Position numbers and translations under genes: made by a program
From: Candidatus Saccharimonadota bacterium
GTDB lineage: Bacteria > Patescibacteriota > Gracilibacteria > UBA4473
Reading direction: 5' to 3'
Assembly: GCA_965228485.1 (NCBI GenBank)
Contig: OZ245819.1
Location: forward strand, 810,001-842,000
Length of the DNA: 32,000 nucleotides
The notes under the pieces: model-generated
Database searches by the model: none
What the model was told of the DNA's origin: nothing
What the model saw: only the letters and a program-made list of their open reading frames with translations
Shown: in pieces, positions 8,143 through 24,885 of the stretch
How the letters are laid out: each line of letters starts with the position of its first letter
How positions within the stretch are numbered: the stretch's first letter is position 1

Positions 8143-8746
8143 AATCTGTGGAATCAGAAACCAGGAAATGCTAGATGCCTGTGAAAATCTTCAGGTTGAC
8201 TTTATTGGTCTCAACTTTGTATCTACTTCTGAGCGAAGAATTTTAAATGACTTTATTCCTCAAACAAAACTTAAAAAAGTTGGGATCTTTCAAGATCAGG
8301 CTTTGCAAGAAATTAGTAAGTATTCACAGCAGTGGTCTCTAGATATTATTCAACTTCATGGGACAGAAACTCCAGAATTTCTTAAGCGATTAAAACTACT
8401 CAGTAATACCCCCATCTGGAAAGCATTCTCTATTGATAAGAATTTTGAAATCAACAAGTTGCAAGAGTATAGCAAAAACTGTGATTTGTTTTTATTTGAC
8501 GGGAAAACCCCAGGAAGTGGAACAAAAATATTAGACAACAAGGTTCTTTCTGACGCTATTTCTGAATCAAAAAAACTAGGCATCTTGGTTGGAATTGCCG
8601 GAGGAATTAATGATGCAAATATACACAAATTCAAAAAACAATTTCCCGAAGTCTATGTTTTAGACACCGCATCAGGCGTTGAAGAAAAGAATAATTTCAG
8701 CCACAAAAAACTTGAAAAACTTATCAAACAGTTTAGAAATGAATGA
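8132..8746 (+). CDS. trpF: phosphoribosylanthranilate isomerase
   Basis: MKIKICGI..., DFIGLNFV..S.R, IQLHG, LFDG...GSG, LDTASGVE. Overlaps the trpC stop by 11 nt. TGA stop. Confidence 0.9.
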   Translation: MKIKICGIRNQEMLDACENLQVDFIGLNFVSTSERRILNDFIPQTKLKKVGIFQDQALQEISKYSQQWSLDIIQLHGTETPEFLKRLKLLSNTPIWKAFSIDKNFEINKLQEYSKNCDLFLFDGKTPGSGTKILDNKVLSDAISESKKLGILVGIAGGINDANIHKFKKQFPEVYVLDTASGVEEKNNFSHKKLEKLIKQFRNE

Positions 8747-15175: not shown

Positions 15176-15850
15176 ATGATTGCTTGTTTTTTTGATTTCG
15201 ATTCAACCGTTGTAACAAAAGAATCTCTGGATGAAGTAATCAATGTTGCGCTTGCAAACCATCCCGAACAATCTCATTTTTCAGCCGAGGTTGAAAGGCT
15301 GACAAACCTAGGAATGGAAGGGAAAATACCTTTTACGCAATCGGTTGATGAGCGGCTTAAATTTTGTCCAGTAGAACAACATCATTTTGAGTATATCGGA
15401 ACACATTTCCTCTCACATATCACTCCTGGATTCGAAACAATGATCAAAACTCTACAACAGAAAGACTGCGAAGTTTTTATTGTTAGTGGAGGATTTCTCC
15501 CAAGTATATATCCTGTAGCAGAAAAATTAAATATTCCACGTCATCAAGTTTATGCCAACGAACCACTCTTTGGCAATGATGGGAACTGTCTTGGAGCCAA
15601 TAAGGACAATCTTCTTTGGACAAACGAGGGAAAAAGCCCCGTAATAGAATATCTAAAAGAGAAGCATCAAATCAAAACTAGTATTTTAGTGGGAGACGGA
15701 AACAATGATTTTCGTGCTTTTGAAAGAGGTTCTGTAGATCATTTTATTGGATTTGGTGGGAATGTCGTAAGAGAAAGCGTCAAAGCTAATGCCCCTATTT
15801 TTACTCACTCAACAGAAGAACTTGAAGCGCAATTAAACCAGATTATTTAA
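15176..15850 (+). CDS. serB: phosphoserine phosphatase (HAD family, SerB-like)
   Basis: DFDST nucleophile motif (FFDFDSTVV), SGGF, GDGNND. Located directly upstream of serA-serC. Confidence 0.75.
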   Translation: MIACFFDFDSTVVTKESLDEVINVALANHPEQSHFSAEVERLTNLGMEGKIPFTQSVDERLKFCPVEQHHFEYIGTHFLSHITPGFETMIKTLQQKDCEVFIVSGGFLPSIYPVAEKLNIPRHQVYANEPLFGNDGNCLGANKDNLLWTNEGKSPVIEYLKEKHQIKTSILVGDGNNDFRAFERGSVDHFIGFGGNVVRESVKANAPIFTHSTEELEAQLNQII

Positions 15851-15872
15851 CATAAAAAAAGCCGTTGATCCC

Positions 15873-15901
15873 TTGAATTTACTTGGACAAGGGAATATGA
15901 T
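15873..15901 (+). promoter_or_regulatory. putative promoter of the serA-serC leader
   Basis: TTGAAT (15873-15878), 17-nt spacer, TATGAT (15896-15901). The uORF ATG follows 10 nt later. Confidence 0.5.
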
Positions 15902-15911
15902 ATCGGTGTAA

Positions 15912-15953
15912 ATGATACACCGCCCAAGAGGAAAAGGTCGGAAGGAAATCTAA
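15912..15953 (+). CDS. 13-codon upstream ORF in the serA leader (MIHRPRGKGRKEI)
   Basis: ATG ATA CAC CGC CCA AGA GGA AAA GGT CGG AAG GAA ATC TAA. It has a same-length homolog in the glyA leader (MALRPSGKGRKEV). Within the conserved codons the two differ only at synonymous third positions. Confidence 0.55.
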   Translation: MIHRPRGKGRKEI

Positions 15954-15977
15954 GAAAAAACCGTCAAAAGAACTTTT

Positions 15978-16006
15978 ACGGATCGCTGCTCATGCGCCGT
16001 TTTTTT
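15978..16006 (+). terminator. intrinsic terminator of the serA leader, competing with an upstream antiterminator hairpin
   Basis: Terminator: ACGG-at-CGC-tgctcat-GCG-CCGT followed by T6. The ACGG can alternatively pair in CCGTCAAAAG/CTTTTACGG (15961-15981). The terminator ends 21 nt before the serA ATG. Confidence 0.5.
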
Positions 16007-16027
16007 GTTATTAATTTTCTTAAAAAT

Positions 16028-17257
16028 ATGAACAACTCCATCGATAAATCAAAGCTTAAAATCCTTCTTCTTGAAGGCGTTAGTCCAAAATCTCTAAATT
16101 ACTTTAAAGACAATGGCTATGAAAATATTGAATACATCAAGACCGCTCTTCCAGAGTCTGAGCTCATTGAAAAAATAAAAGATGTACACTTCATAGGAAT
16201 TCGCTCTCGAACCCAGCTCACAAAAAATGTTTTTGAAGCGGCAGAAAAACTAACCGCCGTGGGATGTTTTTGTATTGGGACGAACCAGGTTGACCTTGAA
16301 GCAGCAAAAATGAAAGGAGTCCCTGTTTTTAACGCTCCATTTGCAAATACGAGAAGTGTAGCAGAACTTACTATTGCTTCAACTATCCACCTTATGAGGG
16401 GTATTCCTGCTAAAAATATTGCCGCGCACAGAGGAGAGTGGCTTAAAAGTGCCGAAAATTCTTTTGAAGTAAGAGGAAAGAAGCTCGGAATTATTGGATA
16501 CGGAAATATAGGTTCTCAGTTAAGCGTACTTGCTTCAGGACTGGGAATGCACGTTTACTACTATGATGTTGAAAATAAACTTCCTCACGGAAATGCTCGT
16601 TCTACGAGCGATCTCAAAACCTTGCTAGGCATGTCTGATGTTGTCACTGTTCACGTTCCAGAAACTCCTCAAACAAAGAATATGATTAACAAAGAAGCTT
16701 TGAGCCAGATGAAACCTGGGAGCTTCTTGATCAATTATGCTCGAGGAACCGTTGTAGATATTGATGCCCTTAAAGAATCACTCGAAAACAAACATTTACT
16801 TGGAGCCGCTCTAGACGTATTCCCAAAGGAGCCAAAGTCAAAAGATGAAGAATTCGAATCTCCATTAAGAGGACTTGATAATGTACTTATTTCTCCACAT
16901 GTGGGAGGGAGTACTCAAGAAGCACAAGAAAATATTGGAACGGAAGTAGCCGAAAAACTTGTTCGATACTCTGATAACGGATCCACCGCTTGGGCGGTAA
17001 ACTTTCCAGAAGCAAACCTTCCAACCCATGACGGAAGCCATCGAATTCTCAATATTCACCAAAACATCCCAGGAATGATGAGTCAGATAAACCAAATCTT
17101 TGCAGAAAGCGGAACGAATATCGTCGGGCAGTTTTTACAAACTGATCCTGAAGTTGGTTACGTCGTAATCGATATTGATACCCAAAATGATCCTCATCAA
17201 TTCAAAGAAAAGTTAAGCACCATTGAAGGTAGCATTCGTACTCGTGTTCTCCATTAA
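16028..17257 (+). CDS. serA: D-3-phosphoglycerate dehydrogenase (long, E. coli-type with C-terminal ACT domain)
   Basis: Colinear with E. coli SerA as recalled (HFIGIRSRTQLT, AVGCFCIGTNQVDL, VPVFNAPFANTRSVAEL, GKKLGIIGYGNIGSQL, PHVGGSTQEAQENIG, YSDNGST..AVNFPE). Start taken at ATG 16028 (MNNSIDKSKLKILLLEG). The track ATG 15992 lies in the terminator loop. Confidence 0.95.
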   Translation: MNNSIDKSKLKILLLEGVSPKSLNYFKDNGYENIEYIKTALPESELIEKIKDVHFIGIRSRTQLTKNVFEAAEKLTAVGCFCIGTNQVDLEAAKMKGVPVFNAPFANTRSVAELTIASTIHLMRGIPAKNIAAHRGEWLKSAENSFEVRGKKLGIIGYGNIGSQLSVLASGLGMHVYYYDVENKLPHGNARSTSDLKTLLGMSDVVTVHVPETPQTKNMINKEALSQMKPGSFLINYARGTVVDIDALKESLENKHLLGAALDVFPKEPKSKDEEFESPLRGLDNVLISPHVGGSTQEAQENIGTEVAEKLVRYSDNGSTAWAVNFPEANLPTHDGSHRILNIHQNIPGMMSQINQIFAESGTNIVGQFLQTDPEVGYVVIDIDTQNDPHQFKEKLSTIEGSIRTRVLH

Positions 17258-17258
17258 A

Positions 17259-18332
17259 ATGTTTGATATCACCTTTAATCCCGGCCCATCACAAATATCA
17301 AAAGCGACAAAAAAAGATATTCAAGATGCTGTAGACCAAAGGATTCTAGAAATTTCTCACCGAAGTCCTCAGTTTTCTGAGATTTCAACTCAGGCTGTTA
17401 TTGGTCTACGAAAACTCCTCGATATTCCTGAAGACTATCATATATTTTACTTAGATTCTGCCAGTCAAGCCTGGCATTCAATCTTGAGCAATACCGTTGT
17501 GAAAAACTCTTTTCACTTTATTAATGGAGCCTTTTCTGAAAAGTTTTATAAAGCCGCTCAAGTGCTTAATAAATCTCCAAACCATCAAACCGTTTCTTGG
17601 GGGGAACAAAATGATTTTGAGACTGATATCCCAGTAAACACAGAGCTTATTACCGCTTGCTACAATGAAACGAGCACTGGAGTCATGATGAATGCTAAAC
17701 AACTTGAAGCCCTAAGAAAAAATAACCCAGACCCGCTTATTACCATTGATATTACCTCTTGTGCAGGGGCTATGAACGTAGATATATCACAGGCAGATTG
17801 TTGGTATTTTTCGGTTCAGAAATGCTTTGGACTTCCGGCTGGACTGGGGATTCTAATTGTCTCACCAAAAGCCTATGAAAGATCTATAAATTTAAAAAAC
17901 GAAGAAAAAAACTCAGCCGGTATTTGGCAATGGGAAAAACTCAACAAGCCTATGGTAGAAAAAAATCATCAAACTCCCCAAACCCCAAATGTGCTGAATA
18001 TCTACCTCCTTGCAAAACAATGTGAACGATGGAATAACTCTGGAGGTTTGGATCAAATAATCCAAGAAACTAAGACGAAGAAGCAAATGATTGAATCCTG
18101 GACTCAAGATTCTGACTTTAATTTTTTCGTATCCAGTGAAGATTTCCGATCAGACACGGTTTTAACCATCACGGGTTTGCCTGAAAAAGTGGCTGAAATA
18201 CACGAAAAATGTATGCAGAACAATATTGTGATGGGAAAAGGTTACGGAACAACCAAAGCAAATGTATTTAGAATTGCGAACTTCCCAGCGGTAACGGAGG
18301 AAGATCTCGAAAGGTTCTTTTCAATTATTTAA
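17259..18332 (+). CDS. serC: phosphoserine aminotransferase (class V aminotransferase)
   Basis: FNPGPSQISK N-terminus, ISHRS..F, NETSTG, SVQKCFG (PLP lysine context), RIANFPA. Starts 1 nt after the serA stop (ATG 17259). Confidence 0.85.
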   Translation: MFDITFNPGPSQISKATKKDIQDAVDQRILEISHRSPQFSEISTQAVIGLRKLLDIPEDYHIFYLDSASQAWHSILSNTVVKNSFHFINGAFSEKFYKAAQVLNKSPNHQTVSWGEQNDFETDIPVNTELITACYNETSTGVMMNAKQLEALRKNNPDPLITIDITSCAGAMNVDISQADCWYFSVQKCFGLPAGLGILIVSPKAYERSINLKNEEKNSAGIWQWEKLNKPMVEKNHQTPQTPNVLNIYLLAKQCERWNNSGGLDQIIQETKTKKQMIESWTQDSDFNFFVSSEDFRSDTVLTITGLPEKVAEIHEKCMQNNIVMGKGYGTTKANVFRIANFPAVTEEDLERFFSII

Positions 18333-22333: not shown

Positions 22334-23611
22334 TTAAACAAAACTATCCGGAATTGGGAAGTCGTGGGCTAATTGTCTCACTTCTTCTCGAATCTTATCT
22401 TTCACGGCTTGATCATCTCGATTATTCATCGCTTCGACCATAAGTTCTGCAACTCGAGCACATTGTTCTTCTTTGAACCCCCGAGTGGTAATCGCTGGGG
22501 TTCCAAATCGAATTCCAGATGGGTCGAACATGGTTCGTGTTTCTCCTGCAATTGAATTTTTGTTCAGGGTAATTCCCACTTCATCCAGTACGTCTTCAGC
22601 TTCTTGACCAGTTACTCCAATTGATCCGTAAACATCCGCCAATAGAAGATGATTATCAGTTCCTCCTCCTATAAGACGAATTCCTGCCTCTAGGAATACT
22701 TTTTCCATGGCTTTGGCATTCTTTAGAATTTGTTGTGCATATTCCTGAAAGGCTGGAGTGAGCGCTTCTCCAAAGGCAACCGCACGAGCGGCTACTGCGT
22801 GCATGTGTGGACCTCCTTGGAGTCCTGGAAAGATTGATTTATCAATTTTCTTCGCTAGTTCTTCGTCTTCTCGAACGAGGATTAGGCCTCCTCGAGGTCC
22901 TCGAAGTGTTTTGTGAGTTGTGGTAGTGATAATATCAAATCCGTAATCAAAAGGATTTTTAACCACTTTCCCAGCAATAAGCCCAGCAATGTGAGCCATA
23001 TCGGCCATAGTGTAAGCGCCTACTTCTTTCGCAATATCAACGAATTTTTGGTAATCCAATTCTCGAGAGTAAGCTGAGAATCCAGCTAGGATAAGTTTTG
23101 GTTTTTCTCGAAGGGCTACTTCTCTCATTTCTTCGTAATCAATTTCTCCTGTATCTGGATTTTTCATTCCGTAACGAACAAAGTTAAATGACTTTGTCAC
23201 GTGTGTTACGGGATGGCCATGAGTTAGATGTCCTCCGTGTGAAAGATCCATCCCAAGAACCGTATCTCCAGGCTCTAGAATTCCATAGTAAACTCCAATA
23301 TTGGCCGGAGCTCCAGAATGTGGCTGAACATTTGCGTATTTTGCTCCGAAAAGCTTACACGCTCTTTCTATAGCGATATCTTCGATCGTGTCGGTGAACT
23401 GTTGTCCTCCGTAGTATCTTTTTCCTGGGTATCCTTCTGAGTATTTATTGGTAAAACAACTTCCTAAAGCTTCATGACAAGCTTTTGAGATATAATTTTC
23501 TGAAGGCACCAATTCCAAACCATTAGCTTCTCGTGCTTCCTCTCCTCGGATAGCATCAGCCATTTGTGGATCTTGGGCTTCAATGAACGGAATCGATTGT
23601 GGACTAGACAT
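22334..23611 (-). CDS. glyA: serine hydroxymethyltransferase
   Basis: LELVPSENY, YSEGYPGKRYYGG, NVQPHSG..AN, TTTTHKTLRGPRGG (PLP lysine), GGPHMH. Confidence 0.96.
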   Translation of the reverse strand: MSSPQSIPFIEAQDPQMADAIRGEEAREANGLELVPSENYISKACHEALGSCFTNKYSEGYPGKRYYGGQQFTDTIEDIAIERACKLFGAKYANVQPHSGAPANIGVYYGILEPGDTVLGMDLSHGGHLTHGHPVTHVTKSFNFVRYGMKNPDTGEIDYEEMREVALREKPKLILAGFSAYSRELDYQKFVDIAKEVGAYTMADMAHIAGLIAGKVVKNPFDYGFDIITTTTHKTLRGPRGGLILVREDEELAKKIDKSIFPGLQGGPHMHAVAARAVAFGEALTPAFQEYAQQILKNAKAMEKVFLEAGIRLIGGGTDNHLLLADVYGSIGVTGQEAEDVLDEVGITLNKNSIAGETRTMFDPSGIRFGTPAITTRGFKEEQCARVAELMVEAMNNRDDQAVKDKIREEVRQLAHDFPIPDSFV

Positions 23612-23652: not shown

Positions 23653-23681
23653 AAAAAACAGCGACAAATTTCTGCGCTGTT
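23653..23681 (-). terminator. intrinsic terminator inside the glyA leader (or terminator of the upstream metA-like gene)
   Basis: Minus strand: AACAGCG (23681-23675), 11-nt loop, CGCTGTT (23663-23657), TTTT. It ends 41 nt before the glyA ATG. Confidence 0.6.
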
Positions 23682-23702
23682 CTTCATAAGTGTTTCCCAA
23701 AA

Positions 23703-23771
23703 CTAAACCTCTTTTCGCCCTTTCCCGGAAGGACGTAAAGCCATACTGTTCTGAGATATTTTGTGGGTCAT
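23703..23771 (-). CDS. upstream ORF in the glyA leader (MTHKISQNSMALRPSGKGRKEV; 13-codon version from ATG 23744)
   Basis: The first ATG is 11 nt after the TATCTT -10 box. The C-terminal 13 codons (ATG GCT TTA CGT CCT TCC GGG AAA GGG CGA AAA GAG GTT TAG) parallel the serA-leader uORF codon for codon. Confidence 0.55.
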   Translation of the reverse strand: MTHKISQNSMALRPSGKGRKEV

Positions 23772-23782
23772 TGGGTACTCAA

Positions 23783-23811
23783 AAGATAATAAATAACCAA
23801 ATTGAAGTCAA
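23783..23811 (-). promoter_or_regulatory. putative promoter of the glyA leader
   Basis: Minus strand: TTGACT (23811-23806), 17-nt spacer, TATCTT (23788-23783). It starts 3 nt after the metA-like stop codon. Confidence 0.45.
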
Positions 23812-23814
23812 TAC

Positions 23815-24885
23815 TTAAGCCGCCAAAGAAAGTAGTGGATTTTCTGGGTCTACTCCTTTCATATATTTTTCATGACGCCCCTTCCCAGTGATCTTCAACA
23901 GGCCTGCTAACCACCGCTGAATAAGCTCATTCCCGGCTCCCTTCCAAGTAACCATTAAGTGTGGAGATATTTTAGCATAAAGCTCTTTTCGCTTTTCTTT
24001 GTCTAAAACATTCGCTGGATCAGACTGAAAGAGTGTTAAAAGTGTTTTCCCCTCAGCGGTTAAATAAGTAGGAAAGGGTGGTTTTGAATCCCCATTTTCA
24101 ATATGTCTCCCCAAGTCTCTCAAATATTCCATTAGTAAATCCATTGCTGAATACTCTGAGTGAGTTTGCAGCCCTAGAAACTTCATTTGTGGATCAACAG
24201 CCGCTCCAACCGATTCTCGAGTCCAGTTAATAGCATGGTTTAACACAATCCAATCCGGATGCCCCTCCAAATCTTTTCTTTCGACGTCTCCCCAGCGTGC
24301 GTGTACGGCTGTATGGTGAGTATCGGCATCTCTTACCAAAAAGTGATCACGACTTTCTAACGGAACTAAATGGTCATGAACTCCAATATTTTTTACATCG
24401 TGAAGAGTTCTATCAATCCCATGCTGCGTCTTTAGGAGGATATGAAAAGCCAAACAAGCAAACAGTCCTGTTGTTATATCTCCTTTTTCAATTTCTTGTA
24501 CTAAATCCTTAAAAGCGGGAACAAATGGTAGCGCCTCTAAATTTGGAACCTCTAGATCTCCCCCCGTAAAAACCATAGCATCTAAGCCGTCTTTGAGAAC
24601 AGAATCAATATCACGAGAAAATCTAGATAAATGCTCTAAAACTTCAGGTTTTGATCTCTCCATCCCGGGAATATTTACTGGATGCAGATAAACTTGTATT
24701 GATGGATCTGCCCAATTTAAATACCTTGCCCAAGTTCTAAATGTTTCAAAATAAGCAGAATCGGGCATATTGTTCCACAAGCCTATGTGTAATTCTCTGA
24801 TTTCTCTTTTTGAGGCTAACTCTAGATCTTCAATTCCTCGAATATCTTCTAAAACTGGATCGCCTAAATGATTTACTATTCCCAT
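23815..24885 (-). CDS. divergent MetA/HTS-family homoserine O-acyltransferase-like protein
   Basis: Manual alignment to E. coli and B. subtilis MetA. IRELHIGLWNNMP aligns with IRP.K...LNLMP. AMVFTGGDLE aligns with GLI.TGAP. LFACLAF carries the catalytic Cys (E. coli FVCWA). HARW aligns with HSRY. THSEY aligns with GHPEY, keeping His and Glu. About 50 extra C-terminal residues. Confidence 0.7.
   Translation of the reverse strand: MGIVNHLGDPVLEDIRGIEDLELASKREIRELHIGLWNNMPDSAYFETFRTWARYLNWADPSIQVYLHPVNIPGMERSKPEVLEHLSRFSRDIDSVLKDGLDAMVFTGGDLEVPNLEALPFVPAFKDLVQEIEKGDITTGLFACLAFHILLKTQHGIDRTLHDVKNIGVHDHLVPLESRDHFLVRDADTHHTAVHARWGDVERKDLEGHPDWIVLNHAINWTRESVGAAVDPQMKFLGLQTHSEYSAMDLLMEYLRDLGRHIENGDSKPPFPTYLTAEGKTLLTLFQSDPANVLDKEKRKELYAKISPHLMVTWKGAGNELIQRWLAGLLKITGKGRHEKYMKGVDPENPLLSLAA

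Follow-up and report, generated by a model that had tools for sequence, protein, structure and literature searches.

A conserved C-terminal decapeptide and an intrinsic terminator in the leaders of glyA and serine-operon genes of Gracilibacteria-type genomes suggest a peptide-based attenuator

The window analyzed here is a stretch of 32,000 nucleotides (nt) from a Candidatus Saccharimonadota bacterium of the GTDB lineage Gracilibacteria, UBA4473 (assembly GCA_965228485.1, contig OZ245819.1, positions 810,001 to 842,000), and the element in question is the leader of its glyA gene. The gene lies on the minus strand (22334-23611) and encodes a serine hydroxymethyltransferase, with a score of 563 bits against the profile NF000586 (cutoff 335). 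Upstream of it, the stop codon of a metA-like gene occupies 23817-23815, and three nt further on begins a sigma-70-like promoter (23783-23811, minus strand) composed of TTGACT (23811-23806), a 17-nt spacer and TATCTT (23788-23783), with 9 of 12 matches in a promoter scan. The -10 hexamer ends just 11 nt 5' of the ATG (23771) of an upstream open reading frame (uORF), which would therefore be nearly leaderless. This uORF (23703-23771, minus strand) runs for 22 codons to a TAG at 23705-23703 and encodes MTHKISQNSMALRPSGKGRKEV. Its last ten sense codons, R-P-S-G-K-G-R-K-E-V, together with the stop codon (23703-23735), constitute the core shared by 35 distinct copies. A spacer (23687-23702) that is constrained in length and not conserved in sequence separates the stop codon from an intrinsic-terminator-like hairpin with the core AACAGCG-N11-CGCUGUU-UUUU at 23681-23653. 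The minimum free energy (MFE) structure from RNAfold extends this hairpin, which is followed by six U residues, to 23686-23652; a consensus terminator scan missed it solely through the 8-nt loop limit of that scan. The leader as a whole folds at -37.7 kcal/mol (z = -2.98 against shuffles), and 41 nt lie between the U-run and the glyA start codon (23611). The promoter, the uORF, the terminator and the 41-nt gap had all been proposed in a preliminary description made by a model from the letters of the window, and every feature was found where that description had placed it.

The same description had noted a second copy of the motif before serA on the plus strand. A six-frame search of the window recovered exactly one further copy of the peptide, MIHRPRGKGRKEI, encoded by 13 codons and a TAA at 15912-15953. 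The degenerate 33-nt pattern CGNCCNNNNGGNAARGGNCGNAARGARRTNTAR, which covers the motif and the stop codon, matched twice in the window, as compared with 0.00 matches in 100 dinucleotide shuffles. The second uORF is preceded by a promoter-like TTGAAT-17-TATGAT (15873-15901) and followed, 24 nt 3' of its stop codon, by a terminator-like hairpin, ACGG-AU-CGC…GCG-CCGU and then U7 (15978-16006). The genes that this copy would regulate (16028-18332) are serA (16028-17257) and a serC-like aminotransferase gene (17259-18332). The fold of this leader as a whole is no better than that of shuffles (z = 0.0). Directly abutting the uORF on its 5' side is what remains of a GlcD-like flavin adenine dinucleotide (FAD) oxidase gene, namely its last ~20 codons, still in frame (15846-15911, ending in AVDPLNLLGQGNMISV), with 14 of 18 residues identical to the C terminus of P0124; the promoter of the serA leader sits within this remnant. 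An intact GlcD-like oxidase gene is found at the corresponding position in L192 and L201-L204.

A genome scan with the pattern CGNCCNNNNGGNAARGGNCGNAARGAR against 185,579 genomes, one per species, yielded 111 loci. In 21 of them the stop codon follows exactly one Ile or Val codon past the motif and is itself preceded, at 13-26 codons, by an in-frame ATG; these 21 loci all belong to metagenome-assembled genomes (MAGs) labelled Candidatus Gracilibacteria, Peribacteria, Altimarinota or unclassified. The genes downstream are glyA in 13 loci, serB-serA(-serC) in three and serA-serC in one (L095, the same context as that of the second copy in the window), while one locus precedes an operon with DHFR-like and dcd genes and the gene downstream of another is unassigned. 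Two genomes contain two such loci each (L029 and L030; L047 and L083), as does the window. About 88 of the 111 pattern matches lie within long open reading frames (ORFs) of unrelated, mostly GC-rich phyla and behave like chance matches. Two others (L037 and L055) have a stop codon at the right distance, yet lack both the ATG and a matching gene context, and were treated as chance. XerC/D-type tyrosine recombinases of unrelated phyla (L017, L026, L062, L063, L071, L082, L109 and L110) produce false positives because RPxGKGRKE(R) is an internal conserved segment of these proteins.

Since the genome scan imposed the motif, two additional samples were selected by gene homology alone. Among metagenomic GlyA relatives, the uORF was present in nine of nine loci with a GlyA sharing more than 75% identity with the GlyA of the window, and ser operons reached through SerB-like and oxidase homologues also carry it. 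It was absent from the loci of GlyA and SerB homologues outside the clade (L121-L191, L194, L196, L198 and L200). Altogether, 35 distinct copies were collected from MAGs labelled Gracilibacteria, Peribacteria or Altimarinota, and in every relative examined the uORF and hairpin precede glyA or a ser operon. These comparisons indicate that the element is real and clade-wide. The operon in the relatives has the order [uORF-terminator]-orfX-serB-(GlcD-like oxidase)-serA-serC-DHFR-like-dcd, often with thyA 5' of it. Because of this gene content, the predicted regulon covers the synthesis of serine and glycine as well as the folate/thymidylate cycle. The ORF that opens the serB-serA-serC-DHFR-dcd operon, right after the leader, is conserved, is 95-136 amino acids (aa) long and has no Pfam match (L021, L029, L192, L197, L199 and L201).

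The variability of the copies follows the reading frame. Averaged over the nine fixed codons, the entropy of the 35 copies is 0.13 bit at codon positions 1 and 2 and 1.42 bit at position 3; restricting the set to the 16 copies recovered by gene homology gives 0.17 and 1.35 bit, respectively. At the first Arg, 32 copies have CGN, two have AGA or AGG and another two have Lys instead (a tally of 36 that includes the rejected L055). Each of the three stop codons is represented (TAG 19, TAA 14 and TGA 3, including the TAA of the rejected L055 match), in all cases at the same place, directly after a final sense codon that follows Glu and specifies I, V or L in every copy. The uORFs vary in length from 12 to 26 codons, with the motif C-terminal throughout and an in-frame ATG in all 27 (+5) leaders; those of the relatives L030, L083, L112 and L114 have 22 codons and also start with MTH. 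The N-terminal parts differ in length and sequence and contain no Asp or Glu in 285 residues. Position x of RPxGKGRKE is Ser in 13 of 32 copies, and the uORF contains only two Gly codons, with a Lys codon between them. The shortest uORFs, MKRPAGKGRKEV and MKRPTGKGRKEI, have 12 codons and no Ser. The preliminary description had taken the last 13 codons as the shared part, which is too long: what is conserved is the last ten codons and the stop, and the shortest homologues comprise 12 codons in total. Because of the three-nt periodicity, the interchange of CGN and AGR codons for Arg, the use of three stop codons, the variable length and the lack of covariation, the conserved object is very probably a translated peptide.

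The flanking signals were evaluated in 27 homologous leaders. In 19 of these a sigma-70-like site with at least 9 of 12 matches ends 4-12 nt (mostly 9) 5' of the uORF ATG, as compared with 2.7% of shuffles. Because the promoter ends so close to the ATG, the uORF is predicted to be the first feature of a nearly leaderless transcript. A hairpin with a U-rich tail follows in 24 of the 27 leaders, and the remaining three have hairpins with poorer U-tracts. The mean energy of hairpin and U-tract is -8.6 kcal/mol (-1.8 in shuffles), and 17 of the 27 leaders surpass all 30 of their shuffles, while the hairpin sequences vary among lineages. In 20 of 24 leaders, 18-28 nt separate the stop codon from the hairpin (mean 23.3, standard deviation 2.7), with spacer sequences that are not conserved. 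UUUU occurs in 17 of 30 spacers as compared with 6.3±2.0 in mononucleotide shuffles, a difference uncorrected for relatedness; such a U-run may cause the polymerase to pause or take part in a small A:U hairpin. The U-runs are often preceded by an A-run beginning at the stop codon. Moreover, the 21-nt gap between terminator and serA is too short for a promoter, and the separate glyA promoter 3' of the hairpin that the preliminary description had allowed for has a sole candidate whose -10 overlaps the ATG and is not usable. Since neither gene has a usable promoter of its own past the terminator, expression of both would require read-through. The attenuation that had been proposed in place of a plain operon junction is thus strongly supported by the relatives, through their promoter, shared uORF and intrinsic terminator.

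Folding of the leaders gave little indication of a conserved RNA structure. The preliminary description, in a comparison by eye, had seen no convincing match to a glycine, THF or ZTP riboswitch or to a T-box. This agrees with the Rfam search: nothing in the window reached the gathering score, and when both leaders were scanned permissively (E up to 10), all matches fell far below the gathering threshold. The 7-bp hairpin CGUCCUU-CCGGGA-AAGGGCG (23735-23716) that had been described within the uORF is present in the MFE fold, but it is not a conserved feature. Its variable pairs occur at chance frequency (13 of 35 copies vs 11.9 expected, 12 of 35 vs 10.9 and 10 of 35 vs 10.0), and what is left of it are four pairs dictated by the Arg-Pro…Gly-Arg codons (CGNCC/GGNCG), with no covariation. 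Likewise, AGAACAG does occur twice in the glyA leader, but the duplication is absent in the closest relatives (L030, L083, L112 and L114), and in these the proposed helix between CCCACAAAA and UUUUGGG, which would have closed the whole uORF, is also absent. A comparison of own with permuted duplexes gave no signal of an antiterminator for the motif with the 5' arm of the terminator, for the motif with the 3' arm and U-tract or for the spacer with either arm. When leaders were folded without the 3' arm, the 5' arm had no consistent partner, and RNAalifold found no consensus structure among seven ser-operon leaders, whose hairpins differ in sequence and length and are aligned out of register. 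A plausible antiterminator is present in the serA leader of the window, where CCGUCAAAAG (8-17 nt past the stop codon) can pair with CUUUUACGG, overlapping the 5' arm of the terminator. L120 has a similar CCGC/GCGG option, which is not general among leaders.

In three loci (L192, L201 and L202) the motif does not form a separate uORF but makes up the final ten residues of a 477-482 aa FAD oxidase of the GlcD-like kind (P0121-P0123), encoded between serB and serA. The motif and stop of these C-terminal tails lie at positions 6090-6122 of L192, 2927-2959 of L201 and 2550-2582 of L202, and the three proteins end in GNLISKPSGKGRKEV, GNMVSRPSGKGRKEV and GNMVPKPSGKGRKEI. Nearly all synonymous sites differ among the three tails and the residues are kept, while the enzymes are merely 66-69% identical; because the synonymous sites are saturated and the residues retained, selection on the peptide persists in the fused setting. 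This is the behavior that would be expected of an arrest motif. In the fused loci serA starts 41-46 nt past the stop codon, and the intervening spacers contain neither significant structure (z = -0.56, +1.76 and -0.34) nor a convincing terminator. In L203, the oxidase ends in GNMISA and a 12-codon uORF starts one nt further on, followed by a terminator. The oxidase is probably a D-2-hydroxyglutarate dehydrogenase that partners SerA, judging from its gene position and from published work (PMC9504171).

Three features are general to the leaders, namely the invariant C-terminal decapeptide, the fixed stop codon and the constrained distance to an intrinsic terminator, and because of them a model based on ribosome occupancy is proposed for the glyA leader. 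Transcription would start at the sigma-70-type promoter, with the nearly leaderless uORF as the first feature of the transcript. The uORF would be translated, and its RPxGKGRKE(I/V) sequence and adjoining stop codon are under strong selection at the amino acid level. The nascent C-terminal peptide would then slow or arrest the ribosome at or beside the stop codon, in the manner of TnaC and SpeFL, holding it ~23 nt 5' of the terminator, a distance in the range of partial suppression in E. coli. The time that the ribosome dwells at the stop codon would set the extent of read-through into glyA, and the second copy would act likewise on serA-serC. Such a scheme needs no antiterminator hairpin. The signal is presumably the serine, glycine or one-carbon status of the cell, as suggested by the association with the regulon. 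In E. coli, the efficiency of a terminator is ~0 at ~8 bp from a stop codon and ~0.9 beyond 30 bp, and at 17-18 bp it is 0.12 or 0.8 depending on the sequence (PMC4824070); by analogy, a spacing of 18-28 nt would fall within the ribosome-sensitive zone measured there. The narrower claim, that the glyA leader combines a translated, cis-acting leader peptide with a terminator, can be made with considerable confidence. For the full chain, with the peptide itself as the sensor, the considerations in favor and those opposed are about evenly balanced. A still broader formulation is tentative and on balance doubtful, namely that RPxGKGRKE(I/V)-stop defines a new family of metabolite-responsive arrest peptides that, while still within the ribosome, signal the serine, glycine or one-carbon status and set expression of glyA and of the ser/folate/thymidylate (dTMP) operon through ribosome dwell ~23 nt before an intrinsic terminator, without an antiterminator and also when fused to an enzyme.

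Several observations weigh against a peptide that senses and acts through ribosome dwell at the stop codon. The spacing of 18-28 nt is close to the limit of the ribosome's reach as measured in E. coli, and what was measured there may not hold for the present organisms. A stalled ribosome would allow read-through, so that biosynthetic genes would need a stronger stall when their product is scarce, and the model offers no mechanism for this. Because the three fused copies keep the motif without a convincing terminator, the function of the peptide cannot depend wholly on a terminator. Arg2 is encoded by CGN in 36 of 36 copies (35 without L055), as compared with 39% AGR among the Arg codons of the window, which hints at an additional constraint at the nucleotide level. 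Finally, the peptide is unlike any known arrest peptide: a PDB sequence search with it gave no match.

Other explanations make use of some of the same features. If the leader worked by classical codon-starvation attenuation, the two Gly codons of G-K-G and the frequent Ser at x would sense tRNA charging, a stall there would favor an antiterminator and a ribosome at the stop codon would favor the terminator. The Gly codons lie five and seven codons before the stop, an arrangement similar to that of the Trp codons in trpL, the regulated genes make glycine and serine, and a ribosome at the stop codon would cover part of the CCGUCAAAAG/CUUUUACGG pairing of the serA leader; the CCGC/GCGG option of L120 also fits. 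Nevertheless, this explanation is unlikely, since no antiterminator is conserved (spacer with 5' arm -2.8 kcal/mol for own and -3.2 for permuted duplexes, and no signal for the motif with either arm) and codon sensing does not need the invariant R, P, K, R, K, E, I/V and stop position. Moreover, x is Ser in fewer than half of the copies and there are 12-codon uORFs without any Ser, and in the absence of an antiterminator a ribosome stalled at Gly, ~38 nt from the hairpin, would leave termination unrelieved, which is the wrong sign. The lack of a terminator at the fused copies could be accommodated by translational control, in which a ribosome paused at the uORF stop melts a helix with the segment before the main start codon and frees initiation of glyA or serA, as in SecM or ErmC, with the terminator playing a secondary part. 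Suitable pairings exist between UAGUUUUGG (~23705-23697) and CCAAAACUA (23622-23614, minus strand, ending 2 nt before the AUG) in the glyA leader, with -11.2 kcal/mol, between UAAGAAAA (15951-15958) and UUUUCUUA (~16016-16023, plus strand) in the serA leader and between GAAAAAGUUA and UAACUUUUUU in the ser-operon leaders of relatives. The difference between own and permuted duplexes is, however, marginal (-5.1 vs -4.5 kcal/mol, p = 0.047), the pairing is weak (-0.5 to -4 kcal/mol) in most glyA leaders, including L030, L083, L112 and L114, and the segments are A/U-rich and easily paired by chance, so that this kind of control is considered quite unlikely.

The fused tails, encoded beside serA and under purifying selection, also speak for a peptide that acts in trans or as a protein tail, such as a micro-protein or a short linear motif binding a serine-pathway enzyme or an RNA; the hairpin would then end a small unit and glyA would be expressed by leak-through. 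Conservation at the peptide level fits a released peptide just as well. A product of 12 residues would nevertheless be unusually small for a trans-acting factor, its N-terminal part varies in length and sequence, and the presence of two or three copies per genome, each directly 5' of a pathway gene and at a constrained distance from a terminator, points to action in cis, which makes the trans-acting alternative improbable. Regulation might also be lacking altogether, with the uORF a relic of the 3' end of an upstream gene and the hairpin a constitutive terminator of the upstream unit, and the serA-leader copy does directly follow the oxidase-gene remnant. That account is very improbable: no remnant of this kind accompanies the copies at glyA and at the serB operon, the motif persists while GlyA diverges to ~70% identity and synonymous sites are saturated, and neither the 21 nt before serA nor the ATG-overlapping -10 candidate of glyA provides another promoter. 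An RNA or DNA element that merely resembles an ORF (a riboswitch, a protein-binding site or an operator) would account for the inverted repeat CGNCC…GGNCG, for the invariable CGN at Arg2 and for the better-than-shuffled fold of the glyA leader. It is barely credible in view of the strict three-nt periodicity of variability over 33 nt, the three stop codons at one position with an in-frame ATG always present, the first Arg encoded by CGN or AGR or replaced by Lys, the lack of covariation, the z of 0.0 for the serA leader and the absence of Rfam matches.

Termination-arrest peptides, TnaC and SpeFL among them, are characterized by a conservation that extends as far as the stop codon. Like those of tna and speF in Enterobacteria, the present leaders have a short ORF with conserved C-terminal residues up to the stop and show selection on the peptide and not on the RNA fold, and it is through the proposed stall at termination that the operon behind them would be controlled at the level of transcription. 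They differ in having no sequence similarity to TnaC or SpeFL, a conserved part of ~10 residues in a uORF that can be as short as 12 codons, an intrinsic terminator 18-28 nt away in place of a ribosome-masked Rho site, and biosynthetic (serine, glycine and one-carbon) rather than catabolic genes, with arrest and ligand being only proposed here. The promoter, short uORF, intrinsic terminator and biosynthetic genes, as well as the two copies for two operons of one pathway, resemble the Rfam leader families trpL, hisL, thrL, leuL and Bacteroid-trp. Unlike the trpL/hisL type, the leaders described here have no evident run of regulatory codons, no conserved alternative between terminator and antiterminator was found in them, and the invariance of their decapeptide and stop position goes beyond what those systems require. 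The pyrBI/pyrE and ampC attenuators of E. coli sense UTP (uridine triphosphate)-dependent polymerase pausing or ribosome abundance. In common with them, the closeness of ribosome to polymerase at an intrinsic terminator would decide on read-through without an antiterminator, and the U-runs before the terminator in 17 of 30 spacers may correspond to the U-rich pause region of pyrBI/pyrE; however, their ORF ends in the hairpin or a few nt before it, whereas here the stop lies ~23 nt upstream and the peptide is conserved. With SecM (5' of secA), MifM and VemP the fused copies share a motif that ends a full-length protein just upstream of the regulated gene, but those are force-sensing monitors of secretion or insertion that regulate translation through a hairpin sequestering the ribosome-binding site, of which there is no sign here. 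The element would thus work like a leader-peptide attenuator, yet appears to lack two defining features of the classical kind, the regulatory codon run and the terminator/antiterminator alternative, while the comparisons point to a class feature of arrest peptides, conservation at the peptide level up to a fixed stop. Full-text literature searches for a Gracilibacteria leader peptide, for glyA or serA leader peptides and for serine or glycine arrest peptides found no description of it, and on sequence grounds it appears to be a hitherto undescribed switch in which a peptide controls genes of serine, glycine and one-carbon metabolism.

To our knowledge, very few nascent peptides sense cellular state, and we know of none that does so for serine, glycine or one-carbon metabolism. 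The candidate comprises only 10-12 residues, with 35 natural variants and clearly defined invariant positions, and is directly testable in vitro. Organisms of the Patescibacteria type are genome-reduced and uncultivated, with few transcription factors and mostly leaderless mRNAs; if the proposed attenuator is real, it would show how such organisms regulate one of the few biosynthetic pathways that they have kept. It would also be a natural example in which the position of the ribosome suffices to control a terminator, a principle that as far as we know has so far been documented mainly in engineered constructs and in pyr operons.

Some additional observations concern the surroundings of the leader and the source organism. 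The metA-like ORF 5' of the glyA leader (23815-24885, minus strand) scores 185 bits against the homoserine O-succinyltransferase profile, whose cutoff is 358, and a distant homologue of its product (26% identity) is encoded upstream of the glyA leader in L083. Genetic code 25 was considered for this clade and rejected: three of the uORFs terminate with TGA, and the glyA, serA and serB genes of all loci are free of in-frame TGA. TGA is the stop codon of only three of 35 window genes, two of these being ATGA-type overlaps (at 8746 and 9368). In contrast to code-25 Gracilibacteria, the source organism seems to follow the standard code. Finally, in many window genes a TATAAT-like hexamer stops 6-7 nt short of the start codon, and a Shine-Dalgarno sequence is missing (for example, 5' of 15114 and 19908 on the minus strand and of 5155 on the plus strand), which suggests that leaderless mRNAs are widespread in this organism.

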